Shown: positions 3,777-60,938, numbered from the stretch's first letter. The stretch: 64,000 nucleotides of DNA from Candidatus Moraniibacteriota bacterium (GCA_942490825.1 CALNYG010000013.1:125281-189280), one strand, 5' to 3'. Numbers and translations are program-made. Notes: generated by a model not told the origin, from the letters alone.

Positions 3777-3804
3777 GGAGAAATTAAAAATTATAAATTA
3801 AGTT

Positions 3805-16926: not shown

Positions 16927-18599
16927 ATGAAACAATCAAAAATATTTGGAAAAAGTATCAAAGAAATTCCAGTTGGAGTTTCGACAAAAAATCATGAGTT
17001 TTTATATCGTGGTGGATTTATTCGTGAGTCAGTTGCAGGAAGGTATTATTTTTTACCATTAGGAATGCGAGTACATGATAAGTTAGTAAAGCTTATTGAA
17101 AAAGAAATGGATAAAACAGGAGCACAAAAAATTGTTACTCCAACTTTACACCAGCTTGAACTTTGGAAAGAAACTAATCGAACAGATACAGCAGGTTTTG
17201 AATTAATGACGGTAAAAGATCGACGAGGGGCGGATTTTGCATTGGGCGGAACTGCTGAAGAAATGATTGTTGATTTAGTGCGAAAATTTAATATTAGTTA
17301 CAAAGATTTACCATTTAATATTTATCAATTTTCTAATAAATTTCGTGATGAGATGCGGGCAAGAGGTGGGCTTTTGCGGGTGCGAGAATTTGTGATGAAG
17401 GACGCTTATTCTTTTCACACTGATGAAGAAGATTTCAAGCGAGAGTATAAATTGATGGGAGAAACTTATAAAACTATTTTTGAAAAGTGTGGATTGAAAA
17501 CTTATTCAGTTCTTGCGGATAATGGTTATATTGGCGGTGAGTATTGTCATGAATTGGTCGTGGAATCTGCAATTGGCGAGTCAGACTTTTTTGTTTCCGA
17601 AGATGGGAAATATGTTGCTCATGAGGATGTAGCGGAATTTGATCGTGGCGAGATTAATTATGATGATGAAGTGAAAGAAATAGAAAATATCGAACAGCCA
17701 GAGTGGGTGAAAACAATGGAAGATAATGTAAAACATTATAAATTGCCAGCTTCAAGATTTTTGAAAAATGTTGTTTATCAAAATACAACAAATGGAGAAT
17801 TAATTATTGTAGTGATTCGCGGAGATTTGGAAGTTAATAAAACTAAGCTTGAATCGAAATTAAAGTTAGTTGGTCAGTTGGAAGCGGCAACCGATGAGGA
17901 TTTAGAAAAATTGGAACAAAGAGTGGCTGGGTTCATTCTTGGGGGCATGATGCAAAATATGTTGGTGATATTTCTTTGAAGAGCGTGAAAAATTTTATTG
18001 GCGGTCAGAAGGAAGAAAAAGTTGATACAATCAATGTTAATTATGGACGTGATTTTGAATGTGAGGTTTTGGATGATTTTGCATTGGCACAAGATGGATT
18101 TATGAAAGATGGTCAAAAATTGATTGCGAAAAAAGGTGTTGAGGTTGGAAATATTTTTCAATTAGGACATCATTATTCTAAATTGATGAATGCAACTTTC
18201 ACAAATAAAGATGGTAAGGATGAATTTTATTATATGGGTTGTTATGGAATTGGTGTTGGACGAACGATGGCGACGATTGCAGAACTTCATCATGACGAAA
18301 ATGGTATTATTTGGCCAGAAAATTTAGCACCGTTTAAGATTCACCTATTGAGTTTGAATGTGAATGAAAAAGCGGAAGAAATTTATCAGCAACTTTTAGA
18401 TAATGATGTGGAGGTTCTTTTTGATGAACGTGATGTGCGTCCGGGGCAGAAGTTTGCGGATAGTGATTTGATTGGTATTCCTTATCGTGTGGTGGTGAGT
18501 GAGAGGTCTTTGGAGGCTGGTGGTTTGGAGGTTAAGAAGAGGGATGAGAAAGATGGAAAGATTATGAGCGTTGAGGAGGTTTTGGAGATGGTTAAATAA
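16927..18599 (+). CDS. proS: Prolyl-tRNA synthetase, interrupted by a 1-nt frameshift
   Basis: The N-terminal ORF has class II motifs 1 and 2; the C-terminal ORF has motif 3 (GCYGIGVGR) and the anticodon-binding domain. The frames join if the G5 run at 17941-17945 is read as G6. Confidence 0.75.
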
Positions 18600-27600: not shown

Positions 27601-30248
27601 TTGGTGGAGTTGATCCATATTTAAATTATGCGTTCGAAGATATCGAAGCGGGGGTGGTTGCTACAGCTCCAAAAGGCTGGTCTGGTGATGCAAGTTCAAC
27701 TACATTAAATAATCGTAGTGGTAGCACATATAGTGCATTTCATGAAAGAAATGTTGTTGCTGAATATACAGATATTTTTGGAGTAGTTACTACTGATAAT
27801 ACAAGAAATGGTCTTAGAATTGACATGGATGGAATTGCTCCAACTCATAGTTATTTAGCTTCATCTTGGGTACGTTTGTCTGATAATTTTTTAAATTTTA
27901 GCGATTATTCTGGTAATTACATGCGTTTTTTAGCTATGGGTCCTGATACTTTCTATAGTAGAGTAGGGACAGCAATTGATCTTCAAACAGTAACAGGAAA
28001 TGGAATCGATAGTGTTGATCATGGAGATCTAGTCGACTATATGCCTTATGGAGAGTGGCATAGAATGGATATGTGGGTAAGTATCCCAGACGCTACTACA
28101 GGATATGTCGATGAAGTTAAATGGTGGGTAGATGGACAGCTTATACGAGAAGTTAGGCAAACCGATGGACCAAATCAACCTGAATTTGGGGACGTTAGTG
28201 ATCTTAGTAGAATAGATTTTTTACCTTATGTTTCAAACCAAAACGATTCTTCATTTAGCATTCAAACAGACGATCATTTTATCGATTTTACTCAAGCACG
28301 AGTAGAGATTTCAGATAGTGCTACTTGGGATAATACCGCTCAAACACATAAAGAGCTTCAATTAGCTACTTCATGGAATGATATTACAGGAGAAATTGAA
28401 GTTACTTTAAATCAAGGCTCATTTGACACATTAGAAGGAAAATATCTTTATGTAATAGATTCAGATGGAAATGCTAGCGACGGATATTTATTAGAAACTT
28501 CAGACCCAACCCCAGACGCTTTCACTTTTACCGACATCACAGACGCAACAACTTCAACAGTCTACACTTCAAATTCAATCACCGTAGCAGGAATTAACAC
28601 AGATGCAACAATTTCAGTTACAAGTGGAGAATACAGCATTAACAGCGGAACCTGGACAAGTATATCAGGAACGGTAAGTTTAAATGATACGGTTGAAGTT
28701 CGACACACCTCATCAGCTAGTTACAGCACTGAAACTACCACAACTTTAGACATCGGAGGAGTGACTGATATTTACAATGTTACAACTGAAGCAGAACCAG
28801 CAGACACAACCCCAACCCCTTTCACTTTCACCGACATCACAGATGCCACAACCTCAACCGTCTACACTTCAAATTCAATTACCGTAGCAGGAATTAACAC
28901 AGACACAACAATTTCAGTTACAAATGGAGAATACAGTATCAACAGCGGAGCCTGGACAAGTACATCAGGAACAGTAAGTTTAAATGATACGGTTGAAGTT
29001 CGACATACTTCTTCAGCAAATTACAGCACTGAAACTACCACAACTTTAGACATCGGAGGAGTGACTGATATTTACAATGTTACGACTGAAGCGGAGCCAG
29101 TTGACACCACTCCCGACGCTTTCACTTTCACCGACGTAACAGATGCCACAACCTCAACTTTATACACTTCAAACGCAATTACAGTAACAGGAATTAACAC
29201 AGACGCAACAATCTCAGTTACAAGTGGAGAATACAGCATCAACAGCGGAACATGGACAAGCACATCAGGAACAGTAAGTTTAAATGACACAGTTGAAGTT
29301 CGACACACCTCATCAGCTAGTTACAGCACAGAAACTACCACGACTTTAGATATCGGAGGAGTTTCTGATATTTACAATGTTACGACTGAAGCAGAGCCAG
29401 CAGAACCAGTCGAGCCAGAAGTTCCAACTGATCCAATAGAGCCAATAGATCCATCAGAACCGTTAAATCCAGTAACTCCAATCGCACCAATTACACCAAA
29501 TGATCCAGAAGCTGATGAAGATGGATCAATAGGAAACACCATTTGGAATGACGAAAATAAAAATGGAAAACAAGATAATGACGAACCAGGAATTGAAAAT
29601 ATTAGAGTTAAATTAATTTTAGCAGGATCTGATAATGATTTTGACACAGATGATGAAATTTGGAGAACTGATACTAATCACAATGGACATTATCTTTTTG
29701 AAAATCTTCCAGAAGGAAAATATAGAGTGATAATTAAAGAAGAAGATCTAACAGATTGGACTCAAACCTATGATCCAAGTCATAGTGAAAATATGAATAA
29801 TCAGTTAACTTTAGATTTAGATGAAAATGATGAATATACTAAAGCTGATTTTGGGTATGTGAAAAAAAGTAATGATAATTTAGTGGAATATAATAACAGT
29901 TTATTAAATAATACTTACACAGAAACAACTATTGCTAATGATGATGTTGCAGTAAATTCAGATACAGATAATTTAGATTTAGTAAATTTAAACGATGTTA
30001 TCGAGAATAAAAATGTAGAGAAAAACAAAGTTATTGATGATGTTGTAGATAAGGTGGATGATAACAGAAAAGAAGAAAATGAGTTGTTTGCTGAGTATTC
30101 TGATTTTACCAGTAGTAAAGATGAGATAAGTACTGATAACAAAACAGAAAGTAGTGAAGTTATTAAATATGTAGTAGGATCTTTGATAGGCGCAGCTTCT
30201 GTACTTTTGTTATTTTGGTTTTTTAAGAAAGATGAAAATTTAAATTAA
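24681..30248 (+). CDS. Giant repetitive cell-surface protein (1855 aa) with an SdrD B-like/Cna B domain and a C-terminal transmembrane anchor
   Basis: Signal peptide, Thr/Ser-rich beta-domain repeats, a proline-rich linker (EPAEPVEPEVPTDPIEPIDP), an SdrD B-like segment (GNTIWNDENKNGKQDNDEPGIENIRVKL...GKYRV) and a C-terminal hydrophobic anchor. Confidence 0.8.
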   Translation: MKKILSIFVFFVIIFLGTYHNVLAANPTISAVELVPTPTNDPEYTFNTDQEGTITYGGDCSATTATTVATIGDNTITFSGLSDATYSSCTVMVTNTSLEDSNILSVDTFILETVAPVLTQVTPVSTPTTDTTPDYTFDTDEAGTITYGGSCASILDVSVATAGNKTITFDKTILTIQAVEPLIDATYSDCTIKVTDEAGNISEPLTVDSFTVETGAPTLSQLAPISTPTSDTTPNYSFYTDEAGTINYSGDCASTTLNANAGNNTITFDTPLLAELHSNCYITVNDGDSNLSNSLHVSDFTIKEVPSINNVTGVINGGNSITISGADFGDKSVAAPLRYDNFEGGTADLAIPSDQPGGGWSTESHNGTNALTWSDETVRFPGTLSAKQSYDDEFAGAGISLDNRDDVDTIPETNEMYVSGWFWFDTWDGLTNNTKFINMGVPDPIPAEHNGWQTRLDGNQETDNGLFYAYMSDDCSIEGTNGQKLKYEDYHSFENYFQPNSSWHRIETYLRIGSDGYRDIYIDGVKIGELMGNFTSNNCELEYVLIGHYFRLDYGVGDPTGVRYWDELYVDTTQARVEICEDSIFSNCTHKEIQIPTSWNDITGEIEVTLNEGSLDTLGGKYIYVIDSDGTVSNSYLLDADTTPDAFTFTNITGATTSTQYTSDTITVAGIDAGADATIEITTCDSIGTCEYELNNSGSWTSTSGTVNLGDIVKVRQTSSSSYGTQTDLTLSIGGVEGTHSVTTYIDTTPDAFTFTNITGATTSTVYTSNSITVAGIDAGADATIEITTCDSIGTCEYELNNSGSWTSTSGTVNLGDIVKVRQTSSSSYGTQTDLTLSIGGVEGTYSVTTLADTTAPIISQLAPISTPTSDTTPNYIFTTDEAGTINYSGDCTSTTFLNATVGNNTITFDALSVDEHSNCQISVTDSASNISNTVDVTNFTIKNPPSINDVTGALINGGSITISGSDFSNHDDFGGVDPYLNYAFEDIEAGVVATAPKGWSGDASSTTLNNRSGSTYSAFHERNVVAEYTDIFGVVTTDNTRNGLRIDMDGIAPTHSYLASSWVRLSDNFLNFSDYSGNYMRFLAMGPDTFYSRVGTAIDLQTVTGNGIDSVDHGDLVDYMPYGEWHRMDMWVSIPDATTGYVDEVKWWVDGQLIREVRQTDGPNQPEFGDVSDLSRIDFLPYVSNQNDSSFSIQTDDHFIDFTQARVEISDSATWDNTAQTHKELQLATSWNDITGEIEVTLNQGSFDTLEGKYLYVIDSDGNASDGYLLETSDPTPDAFTFTDITDATTSTVYTSNSITVAGINTDATISVTSGEYSINSGTWTSISGTVSLNDTVEVRHTSSASYSTETTTTLDIGGVTDIYNVTTEAEPADTTPTPFTFTDITDATTSTVYTSNSITVAGINTDTTISVTNGEYSINSGAWTSTSGTVSLNDTVEVRHTSSANYSTETTTTLDIGGVTDIYNVTTEAEPVDTTPDAFTFTDVTDATTSTLYTSNAITVTGINTDATISVTSGEYSINSGTWTSTSGTVSLNDTVEVRHTSSASYSTETTTTLDIGGVSDIYNVTTEAEPAEPVEPEVPTDPIEPIDPSEPLNPVTPIAPITPNDPEADEDGSIGNTIWNDENKNGKQDNDEPGIENIRVKLILAGSDNDFDTDDEIWRTDTNHNGHYLFENLPEGKYRVIIKEEDLTDWTQTYDPSHSENMNNQLTLDLDENDEYTKADFGYVKKSNDNLVEYNNSLLNNTYTETTIANDDVAVNSDTDNLDLVNLNDVIENKNVEKNKVIDDVVDKVDDNRKEENELFAEYSDFTSSKDEISTDNKTESSEVIKYVVGSLIGAASVLLLFWFFKKDENLN
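26601..27236 (+). repeat. Two tandem copies of a roughly 318-bp intragenic repeat, more than 97% identical
   Basis: DTTPDAFTFTNITGATTST...LSIGGVEGT repeated back to back. Confidence 0.7.
28501..29400 (+). repeat. Three tandem 300-bp intragenic repeats
   Basis: TTPDAFTFTDITDATTSTVYTSNSITVAGINTD...NVTTEAEP repeated three times. Confidence 0.7.
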
Positions 30249-30488: not shown

Positions 30489-33144
30489 ATGTCTATATTT
30501 TCAAAACTGTTTGGTTCAAATGAAAGTCAAGTTAAAAAATACAATCCGATCGTTGATCAGATAAATGATTTTGAGGATGCAATAAAAAAATTAACCGATG
30601 AAGAAATAAAAGAAAAAACTGCATCTTTTCAAAAGATAATTCAGAATGAAGAAAAAACATTAGATGAAATTTTGCCGGAAGCTTTTGCAGTTGCTCGGGA
30701 GGCAGCTCGAAGAACTTTAGGAGAGTGGGCTCATAACACTCAGTTGATTGGTGGGATGATTCTTCATGAAGGAAAAATTACCGAAATGAAAACAGGTGAA
30801 GGTAAAACTTTAACTTCTGTTCTTCCAATTTATCTTAATGCCTTAACTGGAAAAGGAGTTCACTTAGTTACGGTGAATGATTATTTAGCAAAACGTGATT
30901 GTAATTGGATGGGTGTTGTTTATGAAAAATTAGGTTTACAGGTAGCTTGTATTACACACGAAGGAGGATTTCTTTACGAAGCGAATACAGTTGATCGAGA
31001 TGAGGTTGATATTGAGATGGAAAACTTAAAAGCAGTTACAAAAAAAGAAGCTTATAATTCTGACATTACTTACGGAACAAATAATGAATTTGGTTTCGAT
31101 TATTTGCGTGATAATATGGCACAGTCTGAGGAAAGATTGTCGCAGCGAGAATTACATTTTGCGATCGTAGATGAAGTCGATTCAATTTTAATTGATGAGG
31201 CGAGAACTCCGTTAATTATTTCTGCACCAGACAATGAGTCAACTAAACTTTATGAAAAATTTGCACAAGTTGTTCCTAATTTGCAAATCGAAAAAGATTA
31301 TAACGTTGATGAAAAAACTCGAAATGTAACTTTGACTGACGAGGGAATTCAGAAAGTAGAAAATCTTTTAGGAGTGGGAAATATTTATGAAGAGGGGAAA
31401 GTTCAATATGTTCATCATTTGGAACAATCTTTGAAAGCACATGCTCTTTTTGTGAGGGATAAGGATTATATGGTAAAAGATGGTGAAGTTATTATTATCG
31501 ATGAGTTTACTGGTCGAGCGATGGAAGGGCGACGATATTCAGATGGTCTTCATCAGGCGATTGAAGCGAAAGAAAAAGTGGCGGTTCAGCGTGAATCAAA
31601 AACGTTGGCGACAATTACTTTTCAGAATTATTTTCGTATGTATGACAAGTTAGCGGGTATGACAGGAACAGCGGTAACCAGTGCAGAAGAGTTTCAAAAA
31701 GTTTATAAATTGGATGTTATCATTGTTCCGACTAATAGGGAGATGGCTAGAAAAGATTTAGCGGATGTTGTTTATAAGAATGAGAACGGAAAATTTAAAG
31801 CGATTGTTGAAAAAATTAAAGAATTGTATGAAAAAGGTCAACCTGTTTTAGTAGGCACAGTGGCGATTGAAAAGTCTGAGTTGTTGAGTAATATGTTGAA
31901 AAAAGCAAAAATTTCTCATAGCGTTCTTAATGCAAAATATCATGAGAAAGAAGCTCAGATTGTGGCTAAAGCTGGTTTTAAAGGTTCGGTAACAATTGCA
32001 ACAAATATGGCGGGACGTGGTACGGATATTAAATTGGGTGAGGGTGTGAAAGAAGTTGGTGGTCTTTATATTATTGGAACTGAACGTCATGATGCTCGAC
32101 GAATTGATAATCAGTTGCGAGGACGTTCCGGACGACAGGGTGATCCTGGGACAACTCAATTTTATATTTCTTTGGAGGATGAATTGATGCGACGTTTTGG
32201 TGGTGATAGATTGAAAGGTATTATGGAAAAAATTGGTTTTGACGAAGATCAGCCAATTGAAAATAAAATTATTTCTAAACAAATTGAAGGTGCTCAATCT
32301 AAAATTGAAGGATTTAATTTTGATGCTCGTAAACATGTTTTGGATTATGATGATGTTGTTAATAAGCAACGAGAAGTTATTTACGGTAGACGGAGAAATA
32401 TTTTGGAAAAATTAGATTCTAAAGAAGAAATTGTAAAAATGTTTGATGAGGAGGTTAATGAGATTGTGGATGCTTATACTAATTTAAGTAGACATGATTG
32501 GAATGAATCAGAAATTATTAAAGAAATTAAGGCGATCGCTCCTATTTCAGAAAATTTTGAAACAAAATTAAAAGATATTTTTGATGATGGTAATAAAGAT
32601 GATAAGGAAGTTATTGAAAGCACAAAGGATCTTTTGATTGAAGAATTGAAAGTGGCTCATACTAAAAAAGCAGAAGAAAATGGGGAAAATGCAATGCGGG
32701 CGATTGAGCGTTCTATTTTAATGCAAACTATTGATCAGCATTGGATGAATCATTTAGATGCGATTGATCATATGCGACAGGGAATTGGTTTGCGGGGTTA
32801 TGGTCAACAGGATCCTTTGATTGAATATAAAAGGGAGGCTTTTGGGATGTTTAATCAGCTTTTGGGAAATATTAGAAATACGGTTTTGCATACTATTTTT
32901 AGGGCGAGTGTTGTTAGTGATCAGAATCAGAGTGCAGTGACTGAATTGGCAAAAAATATGAATTTTTCTGGGGCGAATAGTAATCCTGAGCAATTTGCTC
33001 AGGCGGCTGGAGAGGAAAATAAGCAGATGATGTCTAAAATGCCAAAAATTGAAAAAGCCTGTTCATTCTGAAAAGTTGGTTGGACGAAATGATCCTTGTT
33101 CTTGCGGGAGTGGGAAGAAGTTTAAGAAATGTTGTGGACGGTAG
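30489..33144 (+). CDS. secA: Preprotein translocase ATPase SecA; the C-terminal zinc-binding tail is in the +1 frame
   Basis: DEAD-like motor and the preprotein-binding and helical scaffold domains. The ORF stops at 33071, but the +1 frame continues with [23 protein letters not shown] (the canonical SecA Zn finger). The frames join by a 1-nt change in the A5 run at 33052-33056. Confidence 0.85.
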
Positions 33145-33167
33145 AGATTCAAGTTTGCATGATATTT

Positions 33168-33290
33168 TGCAGGAACGGGTTTTACAACTCGTTCCACATG
33201 TTTATCTTTAGTTTATAGATAAAATTTAAAATATAATTTTTTTACAATTCAGAAACGTTTCGGAGCCAGTTGTAAAACTGGTTCCTGCAG
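33168..33290. repeat. Paired-palindrome unit U1 (H1 GGAACGGGTT-ttac-AACtCGTTCC at 33172-33195, H2 GGAgCCAGTT-gtaa-AACTGGtTCC at 33262-33285)
   Basis: Two 24-nt hairpin palindromes 66 nt apart with outer TGCAGGAAC...GTTCCTGCA inversion. 98% identical to U3 at 38472-38594. Confidence 0.6.
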
Positions 33291-33408
33291 AAGTTGTGGA
33301 AAATAGATTTGTGTAATACTGATAGTGCTATTGGTATGCAATAAATTTTTAAGTTTTTTATAGGGAAGTCATGGAATTTTATTCTGTGGCTTTTTTGTTT
33401 TGGTGGGG

Positions 33409-33437
33409 TTGACAGGTTTTAGTTTATATGATATGAT
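33409..33437 (+). promoter_or_regulatory. Consensus sigma70-like promoter (TTGACA, 17-nt spacer, TATGAT), now separated from its gene by the IS30 insertion
   Basis: Perfect -35 hexamer, 17-nt spacer and a 5/6 -10. Identical to the copy at 38713-38741. Confidence 0.55.
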
Positions 33438-33454
33438 TGGGTTTCAAATGAGAA

Positions 33455-34527
33455 CCTACCCGCAATAGTCAATCCGACCACCCTATTTTTCATCAACAAC
33501 GCGTAAGCGTTGTTTTTCTTTTTCTAAAGATTCTGTTGGAGATAAATAATCTAAACATTTCATATATCTTTCATTACATTTATCTTGAATAGCTTTAATA
33601 TATTCTTCATCATATTTTGAAATGTCACTTCCTTTAGGAATATATTTTCTAATATATTTATTTACATTTTCCACGCTTCCTTTTTCCCATGAATGATATG
33701 GATGACAAAAGTAAATTGGGATTTTTAAAATTGTTTCTAACGTTTTATGCATTCTAAATAATATATCATTATCTAAAGTTAGAGTTTTCATTTCTGGAAA
33801 TTCTTTTTTGATTTTTAATAATTTTTCGTGAACATTATCTATTGTTACGTCTAATATTTGTTCAATGAATACATATCTAGTTTTTCTATCAATTAACACT
33901 AATAGATAGCCCGTTCCACTTTTTCCTGAAACAATGAAGTCTCCTTCAACATCTCCAATTCTCTCTCTATTTTCCGCTATTTCAGGGCGTTTATCAATGA
34001 ATTTCCTATCTTTTAGCTTCTTTACTTTTATTCTCTTTTTTTCCATATTTTAATCTCTTTATTTTCTTTTTGATTAGCTTTCCATAATCGCTATCTAAAA
34101 AATCATAAATTGTATTTTTTGAAACGTAAATCAAATTTTTTTCTTGATATTTTAATCTTCCTGAGATTGCTTCTGGCGATTGATTATCGCATAATTTAGC
34201 TTCTATAAATTTTCTCAATTTAGAATTACCAATTATCTTAGATCCTCTGAAACTTGCATAATATCTTTTTACATATGATTTATGATTTGCTTTTTCTGGA
34301 TCATATTTGTTTTTTACTGAATTTTTTTTGATTTCATCAATGATGCTTGAATGTGATCTTTTCAGTATTTTTCCTATTTTTCTTTTTGAATATTTTTTAT
34401 CTAAATAATATTTAATTTCTCTTCTTTCTGCTTTACTTATATGTTTAAATGTTTTTTTTCATTAAAAAATTATTAAAATTTATCTTTTTATTTTAACAGA
34501 GTGGTCGGATTCAAAAAGGAATGTAGG
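33455..34527 (-). mobile_element. IS30-family insertion sequence (1073 bp) with a GAA target-site duplication
   Basis: Imperfect 26-bp terminal inverted repeats (CCTAC...AATCCGACCA at both ends). Flanked by GAA at 33452-33454 and 34528-34530. The uninterrupted target is visible in the paralogous repeat at 38745-38760 (caaatgaGAAatttacgg). Confidence 0.75.
33483..34440 (-). pseudogene. IS30-family transposase, split by a frameshift into a helix-turn-helix part (34440-34006) and a DDE part (34046-33483)
   Basis: The N-terminal part (KAERREIKYYLDKKYSKRKIGKIL...) and the C-terminal catalytic part (...HSWEKGSVENVNKYIRKYIPKGSDIS...) overlap by 41 nt in different frames. The ATG is followed by an A8 run. 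Confidence 0.7.
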
Positions 34528-34657
34528 GAAATTTACGGTTAGTTTGTAAATTGAACATTTGATTAGTTCTTTGTTAATTTTCGAGTAGGGAAATAGTTTC
34601 TTTATTCGATTTTTTTTGAAACCTTTACGGCGAGGAAATCGCCAAAGGAATGTAGTT

Positions 34658-35155
34658 ATGATAAAAAATATTTCTCTTTTCTGTCTTTTCTCTTTTCTTT
34701 CTACTCTTTTATCAAACTTCGCTATAGCAGACGCTGGGTACGACGATTACCCATCCTCTTTATTTTTAATAGAAGGAGACACAGGAAGCGAGTTTGAACC
34801 TCTTCGAATAAAGGGAGGAACTTTCGATGAGCGTCTTCTAGTAGGAAAAGTAGAGAAGTTTGAAGTAGAAAGTGGGGCGTTCATAATAAAGTGTTCTTTT
34901 AGTGTTATGGATAACGCTACTGGAGATACTCTAAGTTGTCGCCCGAATAATGGTTCACCTTCTTTTTTCCGTCTTACTAAAAAAGTAGGTAAAAAGGGCA
35001 TGAGAATCGTAGAGGAAATAGACATTATTTCAAGTCCTGCTATGTATTATGAAAATAGTAAGACGGCGGGTACAGGATCTACCGTAGAAGATAATGTATA
35101 TATTTCTCCTGATAGCACAGTATTCGGGCCCACAGGAATCAATATCGGGAACTAA
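34658..35155 (+). CDS. Small secreted protein, cassette gene 1
   Basis: Signal peptide MIKNISLFCLFSFLSTLLSNFAIA/DA. The leader is conserved with the gene at 38878. Confidence 0.55.
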   Translation: MIKNISLFCLFSFLSTLLSNFAIADAGYDDYPSSLFLIEGDTGSEFEPLRIKGGTFDERLLVGKVEKFEVESGAFIIKCSFSVMDNATGDTLSCRPNNGSPSFFRLTKKVGKKGMRIVEEIDIISSPAMYYENSKTAGTGSTVEDNVYISPDSTVFGPTGINIGN

Positions 35156-35168
35156 CAGAGTTCCCACA

Positions 35169-35235
35169 GAAGGCTTTAGCAATTCGATTTATTTCGAACG
35201 TATAATGTACACGCTAAGGCCTTCTTTCTTTTTAA
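35169..35235 (+). terminator. Cassette terminator hairpin (GAAGGCTTTAGC, 32-nt loop, GCTAAGGCCTTC, then a T-rich tail)
   Basis: 12-bp stem with one mismatch, immediately after the stop. Paralogous copy at 39197-39262. Confidence 0.55.
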
Positions 35236-35303
35236 GAGCTTAAAATATATTTTCTAGATTTTAAAAAGAATTTATATTTACACAATCAAAACTTTTTACA
35301 AGA

Positions 35304-35415
35304 ACAATTTTTACAACCCGTTCCAAACGTTTCTATTTTATACACATCATAAATTAAAAATAAATAAATTTTCATAATTCAAAAACATTTCAGAACCAGT
35401 TGTAAAACTAATTCC
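35304..35415. repeat. Paired-palindrome unit U2 (degenerate, b-type spacer)
   Basis: TTTTTACAACCCGTTCC ... CAGAACCAGTTGTAAAACTAATTCC. The spacer matches U4. Confidence 0.45.
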
Positions 35416-35497
35416 TACGGTTTGATTATATTATCTAAAAATATCAAGTACTTCTATTTTACTTAAATTATAAAATTAAAATAAATCTATAGAGCAG

Positions 35498-35554
35498 AAT
35501 GATCCTTGTTTTTGCGAGAGTAGGGAGAAGTTTAAGAATAATTGTAGTAAATAG
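35498..35554 (+). other. Degenerate duplicate of the last 57 nt of secA (zinc-finger tail: NDPCFCESREKFKNNCSK*)
   Basis: aatgatccttgtttttgcgagagtagggagaagtttaagaataattgtagtaaatag, compared with the secA 3' end at 33095-33144 (about 45 of 57 identical). Confidence 0.55.
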
Positions 35555-35621
35555 ATTTAAAAATGATCTCGTGTTAAAATAAATATAATAATAAAATAAA
35601 TATTAAAAATAAAAAAGAAAT

Positions 35622-36995
35622 ATGAAAAAAAGTATTATAGTTGCTATTGCTATAATTGTATTACTCGCAACCCTAGGTTTTTTTGTAATGAAAAGTATCC
35701 AAAATAACAACAAGGTTTCAAAAAGCAAAACAAATACAACTTCCGTAACAAATACCGCTAATGTATCTCAAGGTACAGCTTCTAATCAAAAAGTAACTTC
35801 TTCAACTTCAACTACAAATACAAATTCCACTTCAGTTAAAACTAATTCTGAAGGTGAAAATATCGATGTTGAATGCAATCAAATTTATAACGATTTGTTC
35901 AAAGAAGAAAAGAAAGATTTTACAGAATGTGGTGTGTTTGCCAAAGATATATCCTGTGATGGTGAGAGTGCACCAAAAGAAGAAAAACAAAATAATTTAG
36001 TGATTATCTTCGATTCTTCTGGATCAATGGCTGGTCAAATCGGTGGAAAAGCTAAAATTGACATAGCAAAAGAAGCAGTCTGGAAGTTTTTAGATAGCAT
36101 GAAAGATTCTAAAACTAAAGTAAGCGTCGTTGTTTATGGACATAAGGGAAGTAACAATTCTTCTTCTAAACAACTTTCTTGTAGCAGTATCGATGAAGCT
36201 TATTATTTTGGAGATTTAGATGTTGCAGTTGCTAAAAATAAAATTAGTGAATTTAAACCAACTGGATGGACTCCAATTGCGAGTTCTTTAGATAAAGCTA
36301 AAGATATTTTAGTTAAAAATACTAAAGATGGTGATGTTAATTCAATATTACTAATTAGTGATGGTGAAGAAACTTGTGATGGTAATCCTATATCTAAAGC
36401 TAAAGAGATTCGAGATTCAACGGGGATAACTACTAGTGTAATTGCTTTTGATGTTACGGGAAATGTGCAAGCTCAATTGAAAAGTATATCAGAAAATGGA
36501 GGGGGAACTTTTCATGCGGCTAATAGTTTAGAGGAAATGTTTGCGGCGTTGGATGCTGAGAATGATAAGTTTTGGGAAAAATATGAGTGTGAGAGTGAGC
36601 AGTGGAGTGAATGGTTAGATAAAAGTTTAGATACAGTATTTGTTGGAAATAGTTGTGCTCAAAACTTGTTTTGGGAAAAGAACGGTATGATCGATATGGG
36701 GATTGAAAGCTTGGGTTATAATGATGTTGCAGATAGTTGTAAACAAAAAATAATTAAAGATTATCGGGAGAATAGGTATAAGGCTATTCGAGAGCAGTTG
36801 ATTAAAAATTATATTGCTAATTTTATTAGATCAAATAAAATTATAGATGATAGTGAAATATGGACTGATGATATTGATTATGAAGGTGATATGATGAGAG
36901 ACTTGAAAAGTAATTGGAATAATCAGTGGGATAATGATATTGATTGGAATGCTATTCAGCAACAGATCAAAACTGAAATAGTTAACAATAGATAA
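35622..36995 (+). CDS. Secreted von Willebrand factor A (VWA) domain protein
   Basis: N-terminal anchor or signal, a Ser/Thr-rich linker, and a DSSGSM MIDAS motif with the downstream T and D residues. Confidence 0.7.
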   Translation: MKKSIIVAIAIIVLLATLGFFVMKSIQNNNKVSKSKTNTTSVTNTANVSQGTASNQKVTSSTSTTNTNSTSVKTNSEGENIDVECNQIYNDLFKEEKKDFTECGVFAKDISCDGESAPKEEKQNNLVIIFDSSGSMAGQIGGKAKIDIAKEAVWKFLDSMKDSKTKVSVVVYGHKGSNNSSSKQLSCSSIDEAYYFGDLDVAVAKNKISEFKPTGWTPIASSLDKAKDILVKNTKDGDVNSILLISDGEETCDGNPISKAKEIRDSTGITTSVIAFDVTGNVQAQLKSISENGGGTFHAANSLEEMFAALDAENDKFWEKYECESEQWSEWLDKSLDTVFVGNSCAQNLFWEKNGMIDMGIESLGYNDVADSCKQKIIKDYRENRYKAIREQLIKNYIANFIRSNKIIDDSEIWTDDIDYEGDMMRDLKSNWNNQWDNDIDWNAIQQQIKTEIVNNR

Positions 36996-37102
36996 TATTA
37001 ACAAATTCTACATTATAAATTGTAGACCTAAAAGTAAATTTAATTTATAATATAGATTGTAGGTCGATAAAGTAAATTTAATTAAATTAATAAAATAAAA
37101 AT

Positions 37103-37639
37103 ATGTCAAAGTTTAAAGTGGGTATGTCTTTAACTGCATTTTTAGCAGCTGTAGTTTTGTCAGGTTGTGGTGTTAATGTTGATGATGGGGCTGATTCAGT
37201 TAAAGTTAATACTGATGGTATTGAGGTAAAATCTGATGGTTCTACTGTTGAGGTTAAAGATGGTATGAACAGTGTTAATGTTAATTCTGATGGTAGTACT
37301 GTGGATGTTAGTGGCGGTAGTGTAAAACTTGAAACTAATGATGCTAAAGTTAATGTTAACGGTGGTAATGTAGATGTTGATTCAAAGGATACTACTGCTA
37401 CTAAAACAACTACTACAACTACAACGACAAATCCAAGTTCAAGCTCAAGTACAAATACAAGTTCAAGTACAATCAGTCCTTCAAGTAATGCTAATGTTAA
37501 TATTGATGCTGAGGATGCTAAGGTTAAGACTGATGGAAGTAATGTCAATATTGATACTGATGATGCTAAGATTCAGACTGATGGAGATGGTAATGTTAAG
37601 GTTCAGGCTCCAGGGGTTAATTTGAATGTTGGTTACTAG
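37103..37639 (+). CDS. Repetitive lipoprotein
   Basis: LSGC lipobox. Repeated DG(S/T)xVxV motifs and a poly-Thr tract. Confidence 0.55.
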   Translation: MSKFKVGMSLTAFLAAVVLSGCGVNVDDGADSVKVNTDGIEVKSDGSTVEVKDGMNSVNVNSDGSTVDVSGGSVKLETNDAKVNVNGGNVDVDSKDTTATKTTTTTTTTNPSSSSSTNTSSSTISPSSNANVNIDAEDAKVKTDGSNVNIDTDDAKIQTDGDGNVKVQAPGVNLNVGY

Positions 37640-37657
37640 GTTTTAGGGGTTTATTTT

Positions 37658-37692
37658 GAAAAAGCCATGGGATTTTCTCATGGCTTTTTTGT
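37658..37692 (+). terminator. Hairpin terminator (AAAGCCATG...CATGGCTTT plus T7)
   Basis: 9-bp stem plus a T-run, 19 nt after the stop at 37639. Confidence 0.5.
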
Positions 37693-37705
37693 TTGGTTTG
37701 TGGGG

Positions 37706-37734
37706 TTGACAGGTTTTGGATTATGTGATATTAT
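37706..37734 (+). promoter_or_regulatory. Third copy of the cassette promoter (TTGACA, 17-nt spacer, TATTAT)
   Basis: GTGGGGTTGACAGGTTTTgga is conserved with 33401 and 38705. Lies upstream of the gene at 37905. Confidence 0.5.
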
Positions 37735-37904
37735 TGGGTTTCAAATGAGTTATTGTAATCAATTATTTATTTGAAAATGTTCTTTTAAATCACTCTCTAT
37801 ATTTTTAAAGTTTACTTCACTGATTATGTTTTTTATTTTTTAGTAGAAGATATGATTGGTGAAGTATAACTTTTCTTTTCTTGGCTCGGGAGGGCTAGAT
37901 TATT

Positions 37905-38288
37905 ATGACAAATTACATTTTTTTAATTTTTCTTTTTTTTACTGCTCTTTCTCCTGTTGATTCTTTCGCAGCCGATCCTGGTTGTGGAAGCGTTATTACA
38001 AATTCCTATTGTGAAGACGGGAGATGTATTTCAGGAAGTTGTTTGCAGTTACAATTGCAAACAAATGTAGCAGGTGGAGTAGAAAAATCGTCTAAAGTTG
38101 TAAAAATTTCCAGCCATTTGCTAGCTAAAATGTATGAAATTGGCAGGAAAAGAGATGAAGAAAAAGCGAAAGAAGATCTTGCTCGTAAAGAGCAAAAAGA
38201 GGCAGATCGCAAAGCCTGCGATGGTGGTGATAGGCGAGCATGTATAAGAAATGCTTTGCTTATACAAATAGGAAATAGTATGAAGTGA
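37905..38288 (+). CDS. Small secreted protein
   Basis: Signal peptide (FAADPGCG), Cys-rich N-terminus, Lys/Glu-rich C-terminus. Confidence 0.5.
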   Translation: MTNYIFLIFLFFTALSPVDSFAADPGCGSVITNSYCEDGRCISGSCLQLQLQTNVAGGVEKSSKVVKISSHLLAKMYEIGRKRDEEKAKEDLARKEQKEADRKACDGGDRRACIRNALLIQIGNSMK

Positions 38289-38471
38289 TCTCGACCCAGC
38301 GTTAGGAATATTTAACGCTGGGTTCATTTTTTTAAAATTACAATTTTTACATAAACAAAAATATCCAACTATCTTCAGAGATAGTTTTTTTATTACCAAA
38401 AATATTTTGCAGAAATAATTTTAAAATATAAAACTTTATTTTTACTTTTCATTAGAGATAAAAAATATTTT

Positions 38472-38594
38472 TGCAGGAACGGGTTTTACAACCCGTTCCA
38501 CATGTTTATCTTTAGTTTATAGATAAAATTTAAAATATAATTTTTCTGTATTTTAGAAACGTTTCGGAACCAGTTGTAAAACTGGTTCCTGCAG
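38472..38594. repeat. Paired-palindrome unit U3 (perfect H1 at 38476-38499 and perfect H2 at 38566-38589)
   Basis: GGAACGGGTTttacAACCCGTTCC and GGAACCAGTTgtaaAACTGGTTCC, both perfect 10-bp stems. The cores GTTTTACAAC and GTTGTAAAAC are reverse complements. Confidence 0.6.
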
Positions 38595-38712
38595 AAGTTG
38601 TGGAAAATAGATTTGTGTAATACTGATAGTGCTATTGGTATGCAATAAATTTTTAAGTTTTTTATAGGGAAGTCATGGAATTTTATTCTGTGGCTTTTTT
38701 GTTTTGGTGGGG

Positions 38713-38741
38713 TTGACAGGTTTTAGTTTATATGATATGAT
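38713..38741 (+). promoter_or_regulatory. Cassette promoter (TTGACA, 17-nt spacer, TATGAT)
   Basis: Identical to 33409-33437. Followed by the conserved leader and the cassette gene at 38878. Confidence 0.55.
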
Positions 38742-38877
38742 TGGGTTTCAAATGAGAAATTTACGGTTAGTTTGTAAATTGAACATTTGGGTAGTTCTTT
38801 GTTAATTTTTGGGTAAGAAACTGTTTTTTACTCGATTTATTTTTAATTCTACGGCAAAAGCCAAGGGAATTTCTGTT

Positions 38878-39189
38878 ATGAAAAAAAATATTTCACTTTT
38901 CATTTTCTTATTGTTTTTTTCTTATTTCTCCGCTCCTCCCGCTATGGCGGATATCGAAGACGGACTGACTTACAGTCAGCTCGTGAAAGCAGGAATAATC
39001 ACTAACAAAAAAATTGATAGTAATATTTACAAAATTGATAGTGGAAAAAAAACGGATACTGCTAAAGATGCTACGGCGGAAGTGGTTAATGAAGTAAAAA
39101 TTCAAAATAGTAGTTCTACTACTGGAAATTCAGGGGTCTGCATAGGAGCAGGCCCATGCGGAAATAATAGAATGATCATGATCAGGTGA
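38878..39189 (+). CDS. Small secreted protein, cassette gene 2
   Basis: Signal peptide MKKNISLFIFLLFFSYFSAPPAMA/DI. The leader and terminator are conserved with cassette gene 1. Confidence 0.5.
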   Translation: MKKNISLFIFLLFFSYFSAPPAMADIEDGLTYSQLVKAGIITNKKIDSNIYKIDSGKKTDTAKDATAEVVNEVKIQNSSSTTGNSGVCIGAGPCGNNRMIMIR

Positions 39190-39196
39190 TCCCACA

Positions 39197-39262
39197 GAAG
39201 GCTTTAGCAATTCGATTTATTTCGAATGTACAATGTACACGCTAAGGTCTTCTTTCTTTTTA
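39197..39262 (+). terminator. Cassette terminator hairpin, copy 2
   Basis: GAAGGCTTTAGC...GCTAAGGtCTTC plus a T-rich tail. Confidence 0.5.
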
Positions 39263-39327
39263 AGAACTCGAAAGAGATTTTCTAGATTTTAAAAAGAATT
39301 TATATTTACACAAATAAAAATCTTTAT

Positions 39328-39447
39328 AGGAATAGATTTTATAACCCGTTTGAAGCCTTTCTTTTTTATATATATCATAAATTAAAAATAAATAAATTTT
39401 CATAATTCAAAAACATTTCAGAAGCAGTTGTAAAACTAGTTCCTGCT
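39328..39447. repeat. Paired-palindrome unit U4 (degenerate, b-type)
   Basis: ttttATAACCCGTTtgaa ... CAGAAGCAGTTGTAAAACTAGTTCC. Confidence 0.4.
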
Positions 39448-39531
39448 TTACTTGATTTTTTGTAATCTCTCAAATCTTTACACTTATTATTTTCAAAAGC
39501 ATAAAAGCAGGGGTTGGGTTTTACAATTTTC

Positions 39532-39650
39532 GCTAGGAACGGGTTTTACAACCCGTTCCGGATGTTCATCTCTAATTCACAAATAAATTTCAGAATATAT
39601 TTTTTCACAAATCAGAAACTTCACGGAGCCAGTTATAAAACTAGTTCCTG
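39532..39650. repeat. Paired-palindrome unit U5 (perfect H1 at 39536-39559, degenerate H2 at 39626-39648)
   Basis: GGAACGGGTTttacAACCCGTTCC ... GGAGCCAGTTataaAACTAGTTCC. Confidence 0.5.
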
Positions 39651-39759
39651 TAATATTTACAAATTATCGATTGCATTTTTAAAAATATTAGACTATCCTT
39701 ATAGATAGTCTTTTTAAATTATTTATAAAAAGACAAAAATTAACAATTTATACAAAAAC

Positions 39760-41601
39760 ATGAAATATCCAATATTAGATAAAATAAATTATCCAAAAGA
39801 TTTAAGAAAATTACCAGTCGAAGAATTAGAAAAATTATCCGAAGAAATTCGCCAATTCTTAATTCAATGCGTTTCCAAAACAGGCGGACATTTCGGATCA
39901 AATTTAGGCGTAGTCGAATTAACAGTCGCTTTACATTATGTTTTCGACACACCAAAAGATTTACTCGTCTGGGACGTCGGACACCAAACCTATCCCCATA
40001 AAATATTAACAGGAAGAAAAGAACAACTTTGCACAATTCGACAAAAAGGAGGATTAGCACCTTTTCCAAAACGAACAGAAAGTAAATACGATTCTCTCGG
40101 CGTTGGACACACAAGTACTTCAATCAGTGCGGCAGTAGGAATGAGTATTGCCAATCGAGATAAAAAAAATCCGCCACAAGTAGTAGCTGTAATTGGCGAT
40201 GGAGCATTAGGTGGAGGAATGGTTTTTGAAGCTTTAAATCATGCAGGTGATGTTGGTACAGATATGCTAGTAATTTTAAATGATAATAAAATGTCGATTT
40301 CACCAAATGTCGGTGCGATTGATAAATATTTAACACGACTAATTTCTTCACAAAAATATTTAAAAGTACGTCGAAAAGGTAAAAAAATTCTTTCCCAATC
40401 ATCTTCGAGAATTCATAAACTTGTTCAGCGGGTAGAAAAATACGCAAAAGGAATGATTACACCTGGAACTTTATTTGAGGAATTAGGCTTTGGTTATTAT
40501 GGTCCGATTGATGGTCACGATACAAAAATATTAGTTAAAGTTTTAAATAATCTTAAAAAAGTAAAAGGTCCAAAATTTTTGCACATCGTTACTGAAAAAG
40601 GTAAGGGTTGTGAATTTGCAGAAAGTGACGATTTTTCACTTCATGCAGTTACGCCATTTAATCCAGAAACTGGAGAGGCTTTGAAAAAAAGTAGTTCAAA
40701 AAGTTTCACTGACGTGTTTTCAGAATGGATTGTTGAAATAGGAAAAAAAGATGAGGATCTTCATGCAATTACACCAGCAATGTGTTCAGGTTCAGGTTTA
40801 ACAAACTTTCAAAAAACATTTCCGCAACGTTTTCACGATGTGGGAATTGCCGAACAGCACGCAGTAACTTTTGCGGCGGGATTAGCTTGTCAGGGGAAAA
40901 AGCCAGTGGTGGCAATTTATTCTTCATTTTTGCAGCGGGCTTATGATCAGTTGATTCATGATGTGGCAATTCAAAATTTAAATATTCTTTTTGCTGTGGA
41001 TCGCGCGGGATTAGTTGGTCCGGATGGAGCGACGCATGCAGGAAGTTTTGATATGGCGTTTGCACGAAATATTCCTAATTTAACAATTCTTGCACCTGCT
41101 GATGAAAAAGAATGTGAAGAAATGTTAGAATGGGGTTATAACTATGAAGGTCCAGTTATTGTTCGTTATCCTCGTGATAAAGCTATTGCAATTGATGAAA
41201 ATAAATTTCAATCAATCGAATTAGGGAAATCCGAGATAGTTCGAAAAGGAAAAAAAGTAGCGATTTTAACATTTGGAACGACTTTAAATATTTGCAAAAA
41301 TTTAGCAGAAAAATTTGATGTAACTTTAGTGAATATGCGTTTTGTGAAACCTTTGGATAAGGAGACTGTTCGAGAATTAGCAAAAGATCATGATTCTTTT
41401 TTGACAATTGAAGAGGGTTCAGTGATGGGTGGTGCAGGAAGTGCGGTTGGTGAGTTTGTGTCTCAGGAAGGTTTAAATGTTAAAGTTAAAAATATTGGTT
41501 TGCCAGATAAATTTTTGGAACATGGAAGTCGAGAAGAATTATTAGCTGAAGCTGGTTTGGATGAAGCTGGTGTTGAGGAAGTTTTGAAGAGTTTAATTTA
41601 A
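39760..41601 (+). CDS. dxs: 1-deoxy-D-xylulose-5-phosphate synthase
   Basis: Thiamine-diphosphate-binding GDG motif and the transketolase-like domains. The N-terminus GGHFGSNLGVVELTVALHYVF is diagnostic. Confidence 0.9.
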   Translation: MKYPILDKINYPKDLRKLPVEELEKLSEEIRQFLIQCVSKTGGHFGSNLGVVELTVALHYVFDTPKDLLVWDVGHQTYPHKILTGRKEQLCTIRQKGGLAPFPKRTESKYDSLGVGHTSTSISAAVGMSIANRDKKNPPQVVAVIGDGALGGGMVFEALNHAGDVGTDMLVILNDNKMSISPNVGAIDKYLTRLISSQKYLKVRRKGKKILSQSSSRIHKLVQRVEKYAKGMITPGTLFEELGFGYYGPIDGHDTKILVKVLNNLKKVKGPKFLHIVTEKGKGCEFAESDDFSLHAVTPFNPETGEALKKSSSKSFTDVFSEWIVEIGKKDEDLHAITPAMCSGSGLTNFQKTFPQRFHDVGIAEQHAVTFAAGLACQGKKPVVAIYSSFLQRAYDQLIHDVAIQNLNILFAVDRAGLVGPDGATHAGSFDMAFARNIPNLTILAPADEKECEEMLEWGYNYEGPVIVRYPRDKAIAIDENKFQSIELGKSEIVRKGKKVAILTFGTTLNICKNLAEKFDVTLVNMRFVKPLDKETVRELAKDHDSFLTIEEGSVMGGAGSAVGEFVSQEGLNVKVKNIGLPDKFLEHGSREELLAEAGLDEAGVEEVLKSLI

Positions 41602-42942: not shown

Positions 42943-44124
42943 ATGTTTGGTGAAATTCTTGCTTTTTTTGACTTTTTTATTCGAATAGTCTCAGTGTTTG
43001 GAGAAATTTGGTTTATAATTTTTCCAATAATTTTTTGGTTTTTGTTTAAAAATTTGTGGGGACGACATGCAGCTATTGGTTGGCTAATAAAACAGAATGA
43101 CATTCTTTTAGAGATTATTCCACCACAAGATATTGAAAAAAGTCCAAAAGTAATGGAAGGTTTTTTTAATGCTTTGTCAGCAACTGATGCAGGAATGAAT
43201 ATGTTTGCTAAATATGCCTTAGGAAAAATGAATCCATATTTCAGTTTGGAAATTGTAGGATCTGAAGGACAAGCTCATTTCTATGTTCGGACACCAGCTT
43301 TTTTTAGAAATTTAGTGGAGAGTGCTTTATATGCTCAGTATCCAGGAGTGGAGATTATTCAGGTAGATGATTATACACAAAATGTTCCAGGGAATATTCC
43401 AAATGATGAGTGGACACTTTGGGGAATGGATTGGATTTTGTTGAAAGAAGATGCTTATCCGATTAAGACTTATAAATATTTTGATGAGGATATTACAGGT
43501 AAAATGATCGATCCCTTGGCAAATTATATGGAAATCATTAGTACTATGGAGCCAAATCAACATATGTGGGTTCAGTATGTTATTCAAGCTAAAAGACCAG
43601 GCTGGTTTAAAGAGTGGGCACAACCTACTGTTGAGGATTTTATTGAAGAGAATATTAAATCAAAAGAAACAGAGGATGGTGGTAGTCAACCGCTTGAGTT
43701 TAGTTTAACACCGCTCAAAAGACAAGCTTTAACAGCCTTAGAAGAAAATATAACTAAAAATATGTTTTCAGTAAAAGTTAGGATGATTTGTGTTGGTCGC
43801 AAGGAAAATTTTAATATGGTAAATGTTGCAGGAACGAGTGCGATGTTTAAGGAATTTTCAGATGAATATACAAATCAATTCATTCCTTCAGATAGAAGTA
43901 AGACTTATGCAGATTATGTAAATGTTGATGCTCGTAAAGCTCAGCGGATGAGAAGAATTTTAGAGAGGTATCGTGATCGGGATGATTCAGGTTTAACAAT
44001 TCATCTTAGCTCAACTGAATTGGCAACGCTCTTTCATTTACCAGATATGTCAATTGTTTCACCAAGTGTTCAGCATTCAGCTACGCGTCGTGGAGGTGCT
44101 CCGGGGAACTTGCCAACTGCTTAA
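42943..44124 (+). CDS. Membrane protein (N-terminal transmembrane hairpin plus a 330-aa soluble domain) partnered with the downstream ATPase
   Basis: Two N-terminal transmembrane helices and a cytoplasmic domain of unknown family. Directly upstream of the DUF87 ATPase. Confidence 0.5.
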   Translation: MFGEILAFFDFFIRIVSVFGEIWFIIFPIIFWFLFKNLWGRHAAIGWLIKQNDILLEIIPPQDIEKSPKVMEGFFNALSATDAGMNMFAKYALGKMNPYFSLEIVGSEGQAHFYVRTPAFFRNLVESALYAQYPGVEIIQVDDYTQNVPGNIPNDEWTLWGMDWILLKEDAYPIKTYKYFDEDITGKMIDPLANYMEIISTMEPNQHMWVQYVIQAKRPGWFKEWAQPTVEDFIEENIKSKETEDGGSQPLEFSLTPLKRQALTALEENITKNMFSVKVRMICVGRKENFNMVNVAGTSAMFKEFSDEYTNQFIPSDRSKTYADYVNVDARKAQRMRRILERYRDRDDSGLTIHLSSTELATLFHLPDMSIVSPSVQHSATRRGGAPGNLPTA

Positions 44125-44252
44125 CTTTAAGGTATAATTGCTTGATTGAGTTAGAATTTTTATTTGAGTTTTTTTATATCTAAATAATATTAAATTAAGG
44201 GGAAGTTAAATAAAACTAATTATTTTCTAGATAATTCAAAAAATAAAAAACT

Positions 44253-55973: not shown

Positions 55974-55983
55974 ATTAAATATT

Positions 55984-60927: not shown

Positions 60928-60938
60928 CGTACCCTCGT

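Follow-up and report, generated by a model that had tools for sequence, protein, structure and literature searches.

How did genes for unrelated small secreted proteins, set in closely similar flanks, come to lie side by side between secA and dxs in a Candidatus Moraniibacteriota bacterium? To address this question, we analysed a 64,000-nucleotide stretch of its genome (GCA_942490825.1 CALNYG010000013.1:125281-189280; hereafter the window), which has a G+C content of ~30% and whose Dxs finds its best matches among proteins named Candidatus Moranbacteria or Patescibacteria. A preliminary description had seen in the secA-dxs gap a conserved expression chassis with swapped payloads, driven by recombination. 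It was largely right in what it observed, but it overlooked an insertion sequence (IS) and overstated one of three repeat copies. It also missed decayed copies of both flanking gene ends, the conservation elsewhere of an inner gene pair, and the likeness of the palindromic units to known hairpin doublets. The 6.6-kb gap is made of local duplications, palindromic repeat units (U units) and this IS, and its repeat families, which go far beyond what chance would give, are all local: elsewhere in the window, only the secA tail and a solo U hairpin in porA match them. We conclude that the gap is probably a lineage-specific, mosaic and repeat-seeded variable islet, grown by local duplication and recombination; we found no support for a dedicated cassette machine.

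From 5' to 3', secA is followed by module A (U1, promoter A, the IS, leader A, geneA, a terminator and U2), by an inner segment (a second secA tail, tail'; a gene for a protein with a VWA domain; a lipoprotein gene; promoter C; the gene sec127; and a second pre-dxs region, pre-dxs'), by module B (U3, promoter B, leader B, geneB, a terminator, U4 and U5), and finally by the pre-dxs region and dxs. The features are as follows.

30489-33144, plus strand: secA, with its stop at 33071 as assembled
33169-33288, plus strand: U1, made of GCAG, hairpin H1 (33172-33195), a 66-nt spacer, hairpin H2 (33262-33285) and CTGC
33360-33398, plus strand: decayed terminator hairpin, followed by promoter A at 33409-33437 (TTGACA, 17 nt, TGATATGAT)
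33455-34527, minus strand: IS30-family insertion sequence of 1,073 bp, between promoter A and leader A
34528-34657, plus strand: leader A, split from its promoter by the IS, with a 13-bp hairpin and T8 at 34581-34617, a small hairpin and a ribosome-binding site
34658-35155, plus strand: geneA, a 165-residue ORFan with a Sec signal peptide (MIKNISLF...FAIA/D)
35168-35234, plus strand: terminator A, a 13-bp stem around two small hairpins, then a U tract
35297-35419, plus strand: U2, decayed, subtype b, within the 255-nt 3' block
35497-35554, plus strand: tail', a decayed second secA 3' end (the last ~58 nt, from the Zn-finger tail through the stop codon)
35622-36995, plus strand: VWA-domain membrane or secreted protein, 457 residues (Pfam VWA_2)
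37103-37639, plus strand: repeat-rich lipoprotein (21-nt repeats; LSGC lipobox), whose homologues in other Moranbacteria are likewise encoded after the VWA gene
37658-37904, plus strand: perfect terminator hairpin (37658-37690), promoter C (37706-37734) and leader C of ~165 nt
37905-38334, plus strand: sec127, a 127-residue secreted ORFan with its own terminator (38293-38334)
38335-38436, plus strand: pre-dxs', a decayed second pre-dxs hairpin region that reaches the position of the dxs ATG
38473-38592, plus strand: U3, an intact REPIN-like doublet
38664-38877, plus strand: decayed terminator, promoter B (38713-38741) and intact leader B, which carries a stem-loop at its 5' end and, at 38809-38845, a 12-bp hairpin with a U tract
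38878-39189, plus strand: geneB, a 103-residue secreted ORFan
39196-39262, plus strand: terminator B, homologous to terminator A
39325-39447, plus strand: U4, decayed, the counterpart of U2 in the 255-nt 3' block
39506-39531, plus strand: truncated start of a sixth U (AGCAGGGGTTGGGTTTTACAA), directly before U5
39533-39652, plus strand: U5
39690-39716, plus strand: conserved pre-dxs hairpin, followed by dxs at 39760-41601
60241-60280, plus strand: solo hairpin of the U family within porA, 20 kb away, comprising the end of the spacer, H2 and the TGC tag

Modules A and B share a common layout: a U unit, a decayed terminator, an extended -10 promoter, a structured leader, a Sec signal peptide, a mature protein, a terminator and a second U unit. 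Their identity changes from block to block. It is 98% in the 5' block of 290 nt (33165-33454 and 38469-38758), 79% over the whole leader (88% over its first 72 nt), 65% in the first 25 codons, which specify the signal peptides (MIKNISLF... and MKKNISLF...), nil in the mature part, and 86% in the 3' part. The mature-coding parts, of 423 and 237 nt, are no more similar than shuffled sequences (DNA z = -0.2), and BLASTP aligns the two products over residues 1-25 only, which bears out the earlier claim of similar signal peptides on diverged mature proteins. A 3' block of 255 nt, 89% identical between the modules, opens with CCCACAGAAGGCTTTAGC, and its beginning forms a structure with a 13-bp stem and, after it, a U tract (z = -5.9 and -3.9). 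The motif exists with its terminator as previously proposed, but the block directly follows the stop codon only in module B; in module A it starts 6 nt past it (35162, versus a stop end at 35155). As conserved flanks meet unrelated payloads at sharp homology edges, point divergence is ruled out and recombination is needed, either as payload replacement or as gene conversion of the flanks to judge from these edges. For these two paralogous modules, the picture of a chassis whose payloads were swapped is a fair description.

The three promoters claimed at 33409, 37706 and 38713 are all present and share one design (TTGACA, 17 nt, then TGnTATGAT or TGnTATTAT). Their 48-nt core occurs three times versus zero expected, and they are the only extended -10 consensus promoters of the window. 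The conserved block of roughly 300 bp said to surround all three is restricted to A and B; copy C shares with them only ~90 nt (37662-37749, 83%), which comprise a terminator hairpin, the promoter and the start of the transcript (12 bases). We also considered whether the 3' end of the lipoprotein gene is homologous to the block upstream of promoters A and B, and found nothing beyond these ~90 nt. Leaders A (once reconstructed), B and C begin with the same 12 nt, GTTTCAAATGAG, which pair downstream into a 5' stem-loop. Leaders A and B further carry a 12-13-bp hairpin and U tract ~45 nt ahead of the ATG, and then a small hairpin beside the ribosome-binding site. The differences between the two versions of the larger hairpin all preserve pairing (five one-sided, one two-sided). 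On the hypothesis suggested by these two sequences, this hairpin and its U tract would resemble an attenuator or the terminator of a short RNA, and attenuation may be a further control step here. Both module B and the unit of promoter C and sec127 are probably insulated, strongly transcribed units for small secreted ORFans. No Rfam 15 family matched the window (leaders, U units and 3' blocks included) at its gathering score; at E <= 1 the sole match, of 20.7 bits, was to RAGATH-25, whose gathering score is 49, and it fell within the coding sequence of geneB.

Among 5.8 billion protein clusters, the products of geneA, geneB and sec127 each stand as a singleton. Residues 18-57 of the geneB product (38929-39048) show a weak likeness to one LVIVD/EPTP-type repeat of giant archaeal and bacterial surface proteins, with 17 matching stretches in the best match (E = 2e-22). 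An AlphaFold model of the geneA product, computed without an alignment, had a mean predicted local distance difference test score (pLDDT) of 39.6, too low to be used.

The two modules differ further by the IS. Promoter A had been described as running into its leader as promoter B does; the leaders are indeed homologous, but in module A the IS intervenes. Its ends read CCTAC...GTAGG within imperfect 29-bp inverted repeats, with a sub-terminal AATCCGACCAC at both sides, and it is flanked by a 3-bp GAA target duplication (33452-33454 and 34528-34530). IS30-family elements typically duplicate 2-3 bp of target. The transposase matches the NCBIfam model transpos_IS30 (NF033563) with 206.7 bits for a cutoff of 80 and bears an N-terminal HTH_38 domain; its open reading frame (ORF) is broken at two A-runs, probably by sequencing error, and deletion of one A from each yields 325 residues. 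Because removal of the IS and of one GAA in silico restores exactly the copy B sequence, module A corresponds to module B with an IS at about +10 of the predicted transcript. As a hairpin and T-run lie just within the IS on the plus strand (33495-33514), geneA has probably been cut off from its promoter.

As previously noted, a VWA protein, a repetitive lipoprotein and a third secreted protein lie between the modules. These inner genes are not arbitrary cargo, since the VWA and repeat-lipoprotein pair is kept elsewhere: the VWA protein has hundreds of homologues in Moranbacteria, and two further contigs from Moranbacteria have a lipoprotein gene of the same repeat type after the VWA gene, and a radical-SAM (RlmN-like) gene further downstream. 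In one of these loci, L107, the VWA gene is preceded by a GlmS-like gene, and past the lipoprotein gene lies a gene for a small secreted protein with a long leader, behind a terminator and a TTGACA promoter. Promoter C thus fits an arrangement known elsewhere, and it seems to have given rise to the terminator-promoter block that modules A and B share.

The inner segment is bracketed by relics of both flanks. Tail' is 85% identical to the secA end and can be aligned with that of three relatives; two window-specific bases are common to it and the window's own tail. Pre-dxs' is ~65-70% identical to its counterpart, aligns to the pre-dxs region of the same number of relatives, and shares with the relative L103 an indel that is absent from the window's own pre-dxs. 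Because tail' and pre-dxs' enclose the inner genes, one junction appears nested in another. Under a simple tandem duplication the order would be U2, pre-dxs', tail', U3; the order observed is U2, tail', the genes, pre-dxs', U3, and this model was therefore rejected. A fragment of a junction could have been inserted between U2 and U3, or there could have been two anchored events of illegitimate recombination. A likeness of 17 nt between the sequence after U1 and U3 and the secA stop region was too short to be trusted.

The U units, five of which had been counted in the preliminary description, are all present. Each consists of two inverted hairpins of 24 nt, with a 10-bp stem and a 4-nt loop, spaced and tagged as listed for U1. 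Their 31-nt arms are 84-87% complementary, and the unit folds as DNA into two hairpins (z = -6.45). The stem sequences differ among H1, H2, the L103 copy and the porA copy, with pairing kept. No target-site duplication flanks any of the six U copies. A miniature inverted-repeat transposable element of the DDE type was considered, as inverted repeats are present, but rejected as no direct repeat flanks these copies. A covariance model of the U unit found one further credible site in the window, at 60155-60287 (E ~2e-4 to 8e-4), in the gene for the alpha subunit of pyruvate:ferredoxin oxidoreductase, porA. The core of this site (60241-60280) begins with 16 nt identical to part of the U spacer, after which comes an H2-type hairpin whose stem is compensated. 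This core lies within an in-frame, Cys-rich insertion of 54 residues (60231-60392; NGDEKRFGTDCKIHSCDEEVGCKNNDTCTEKC...) where solved homologues in the PDB have 5 residues. Two hairpins also lie 3' of porA (60860-60935; aaacggactgtgaaatccgttt and gaagcagcggtttttacacactgcttc), the second faintly U-like (covariance-model E = 0.14); both may be ordinary terminators. A single U, 80-82% identical, is found in L103 at the same secA-dxs junction, and 36 nt past it a 52-residue ORF has as its sole NCBIfam match the family of REP-associated tyrosine transposases (RAYT; NF047646; 16.4 bits, E = 0.0064, cutoff 80), REP standing for repetitive extragenic palindromic sequence. A degenerate hairpin pattern gave 18 matches in metagenomes, none of them related to the window (their G+C content is 38-62%, and BLAST showed no similarity), and no match in viral sequences. 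By its sequence, the U unit is similar in anatomy to REPINs (REP doublets forming hairpins), with at least one copy outside the junction.

The comparison with relatives was based on four junction alleles obtained by protein-guided look-ups (Dxs 82-87% and SecA 89-91% identical). In a scan of one genome per GTDB species, the nearest Dxs was at most 66% identical and showed no synteny with secA. The junctions read as follows.

L099, L100 and L101: secA, an ORF of 217 residues, dxs
L102: secA, a DNA methylase gene, an NgoFVII-like endonuclease gene, dxs
L103: secA, a 122-residue membrane ORF, one U, small ORFs, dxs

In L102 a type II restriction-modification pair (2366-4479) lies exactly between the two core genes, the methylase ORF starting 3 nt past the secA stop. 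As the relatives keep the adjacency of secA and dxs while the cargo between them differs every time, the site is a variable hotspot. The content of the junction thus varies as the preliminary description would have it, but the promoter, leader and terminator blocks do not recur with other payloads: the window's junction proteins, promoter, leader and 3' block were absent from the four relatives' junctions and from all other loci fetched. Searches of the 6.6-kb region or of five junction proteins against phage DNA, plasmid DNA, PADLOC and PHROGs gave no meaningful match, and an exact-protein look-up returned no identical entry for the window's Dxs, its VWA protein or the best VWA homologue. The window contains no tRNA or tmRNA gene as an integration target. 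Pfam scans (junction proteins at E <= 0.1) revealed no recombinase, integrase or Y1 transposase in the junction ORFs and 40 other ORFs of the window.

These data suggest the following history. GCAG-tagged, REPIN-like doublets are old residents of the junction, where they form a local cluster. A self-contained module made of a terminator, a strong sigma-70 promoter, a leader of ~135 nt, a signal peptide, a gene and a terminator, whose terminator-promoter part matches the internal promoter of the VWA, lipoprotein and small-secreted-protein gene set, was duplicated together with its flanking U units. Recombination would then have made the copies mosaic, with flanks 65-98% identical and unrelated mature parts, either because the mature-coding part was replaced or because the flanks were gene-converted. 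At least one step would have copied or imported the junction ends, tail' and pre-dxs', and the IS30-family element landed later at about +10 of transcript A, parting geneA from its promoter. The resident U units, the duplicated module and the arrival of the IS are read from the sequence itself; the mosaic-forming recombination and the copying of junction ends are inferred.

As the contig comes from an uncultured organism, its base-level quality is of importance. The secA gene has one extra A in an A5 run (33052-33056; 'attgaaaagcc' in relatives), with which SecA stops 24 codons early and its C-terminal Zn-finger tail is out of frame (33048-33144); deletion of one A from the run restores an 884-residue SecA with this tail, of the same length as in relatives. 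ProS (16927-18599) and PorA (59494-60803) are each represented by two adjacent ORFs split at homopolymer runs, and a 140-residue ORF joins TyrS after a 1-nt change (55551-57180). Together, the breaks in several essential genes (secA, proS and porA), in the IS30 transposase gene and near TyrS look like homopolymer-length assembly errors, not pseudogenes. It could then be argued that the nested layout is itself an artefact, in which strain variants were collapsed or concatenated in a metagenome-assembled genome. These base-level errors would fit such an origin, but repeat misjoins would give identical sequence, whereas the pieces have diverged (85% for tail', ~65-70% for pre-dxs', 65-98% for the modules) and the IS has a clean 3-bp target duplication; the homopolymer errors may moreover point to long reads, which would span 6.6 kb. 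As the duplicated junction pieces are diverged and decayed, misassembly of strain variants is unlikely, and we regard an artefactual layout as very improbable.

The dedicated system proposed in the preliminary description deserves closer attention. In an active recombination-driven cassette system, the 5' and 3' blocks would act as homology arms by which secreted or surface payloads are swapped within the population. Breakpoints within the signal-peptide codons and at the stop codon are what such arms would leave, the 98% 5' tract beside a remainder at 79-86% suggests recent gene conversion, and the content of the junction is different in every relative. However, there are two full copies only, each with its own promoter and without silent donors, and one of them is disrupted by the IS; the chassis turned up neither in any of the relatives nor at any other locus fetched, the payloads are database singletons, and no recombinase was found in the 64 kb. 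A dedicated system is thus unsupported, and we consider active swapping unlikely. The modules bounded by U units could instead be mobile, moved by a Y1 (RAYT or IS200-like) transposase acting on the hairpins or by a tyrosine recombinase for which U is an attC-like site. This agrees with the direct orientation of the U units that bracket each module, with the U-family hairpin at a second, intragenic site, with the possible RAYT fragment beside the L103 U and the IS200-like fragment upstream of secA at that same locus, and with U copies devoid of target duplications, as expected of Y1-type elements. Yet the 64 kb contain no module copy outside the junction, none of the window ORFs scanned encodes a Y1 transposase or an integrase, the attC core motifs (RYYYAAC and GTTRRRY) are absent from U on inspection, the U2/U4 subtype is decayed, and the flank relics point to duplication or illegitimate recombination rather than to clean excision and insertion. 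Mobile modules are in our opinion very unlikely. A broader form of this idea, to which we also give little credence, would make the U doublets the ends of a cargo-carrying, hairpin-dependent (Y1/RAYT-type) mobile system of the candidate phyla radiation (CPR), with the U-to-U unit as a transposable, insulated and promoter-equipped expression cassette for small secreted proteins, the secA-dxs gap as its home or landing site and the in-frame porA hairpin as its footprint.

The data are better explained by a mosaic that arose through local duplication at a hotspot than by a dedicated cassette system, although several points weigh against this reading. Covariation in the U hairpins is weak (2 compensatory pairs among six sequences, a value reached in 39 of 500 shuffles). 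The link to RAYT is a sub-threshold match of a truncated ORF from another species. With five clustered copies and one solo hairpin in 64 kb, the U units are not dispersed as classical REPs are. The layout of the relics fits both proposed routes alike, and what we say of expression is deduced from sequence throughout. Finally, the evidence comes from 64 kb of one genome and four junction alleles, and further copies of the chassis or of U could lie elsewhere in the 290-kb contig.

Several other features of the surroundings are worth recording. A repetitive surface-type protein of 1,855 residues is encoded at 24681-30248, between a cation ATPase gene and secA; at the same position L099 has a 223-residue ORF, an M23 peptidase gene and a gene for a DUF5648 protein. 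As L099 holds other genes there, the region upstream of secA is variable too. Just upstream of secA in L103 (402-1255) lie transposase fragments of two kinds, DDE_Tnp_4 and IS200-like Y1, the latter represented by its C-terminal 83 residues (Pfam E = 5e-10). Downstream of dxs in the window, 42943-46028 encodes a 393-residue ORF without a Pfam match and then a TrwB/TraG-like coupling-protein homologue with a treble-clef zinc finger. A 430-residue ORF at 4983-6275, with a sub-threshold match to HTH_32 (homeodomain-like, transposase-type) alone, could be a mobile-element protein.

Genomes of the CPR (Patescibacteria) are small and gene-dense, and little is known of how they generate variation in their surface and secreted proteins, the probable mediators of an episymbiotic lifestyle. 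The secA-dxs gap would provide a concrete route to such variation: a fixed core-gene hotspot with REPIN-like seeds, where modules are duplicated, made mosaic and knocked out by an IS. With its internal terminator, the structured leader is a candidate for a regulatory element. Should elements of the REP/RAYT type operate in Patescibacteria, their known host range would be extended; we found no description of REPs in this group in the literature searched.

How, then, does this locus compare with known systems? The closest likeness is with REPs and REPINs. REPs are short imperfect palindromes (20-40 bp) with a GTAG-type tag at one end; they occur as many dispersed, mostly extragenic copies and flank a single-copy cognate RAYT gene. 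For REPs and REPINs, GTAG/GYAG-tagged palindromes, clusters of dimers reiterated along with flanking DNA, and intragenic copies are documented (PMC3337134, PMC3733652). The U units are likewise short tagged palindromes, with the 10-bp stem and 4-nt loop given above; their GCAG tag fits the degenerate GYAG tag described for REPs (PMC3733652), and their inverted pairs are separated by 66 nt, to be compared with the 71-bp spacing of the GI REPINs of Pseudomonas SBW25 (PMC3337134, PMC3733652). As in REPINs, the whole unit is foldable, dimers are reiterated with flanking DNA, a copy is occasionally intragenic and target duplications are lacking. In contrast, within the 64 kb the copies of U are very few and clustered at one locus, and the RAYT candidate is a 52-residue fragment in L103 only, no intact RAYT being seen.

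Rickettsia palindromic elements are palindromic repeats found in frame inside protein-coding genes. The porA insertion resembles them, and also intragenic REPs, as a palindromic unit in frame within an essential gene (54 residues versus 5), but it is a single case, longer than the hairpin unit and Cys-rich, and part of it may have another origin. The IS conforms to the IS30 family in its match to the family transposase model, its length of ~1.07 kb, its imperfect terminal inverted repeats and its 3-bp target duplication; apart from the two breaks in its transposase ORF, nothing about it is unusual.

Integron arrays likewise alternate small ORFs with imperfect inverted-repeat elements in one orientation. 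Here, however, there is no IntI, attI or Pc, each gene has its own strong promoter and terminator, and the two cassettes have paralogous flanks. An integron cassette array was rejected, as the scanned ORFs held no recombinase domain and no 7-mer of the U arms fits RYYYAAC or GTTRRRY. Antigenic-variation cassettes combine an expression site with silent donors; the present locus differs by its two full copies, both with a promoter, with no more in the 64 kb or in relatives. In phytoplasmas, which are bacteria with reduced genomes, SVM effectors (PF12113) join a conserved signal-peptide region to otherwise unrelated small secreted proteins (PMC8026896). GeneA, geneB and sec127 gave no match to PF12113 (Pfam, E <= 0.1), and no potential mobile unit (PMU)-like element accompanies them. 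The locus nevertheless shares with these effectors a conserved signal-peptide region on unrelated small secreted proteins, in a family of two members in which conservation reaches beyond the signal peptide into the promoter, the leader and the terminator.

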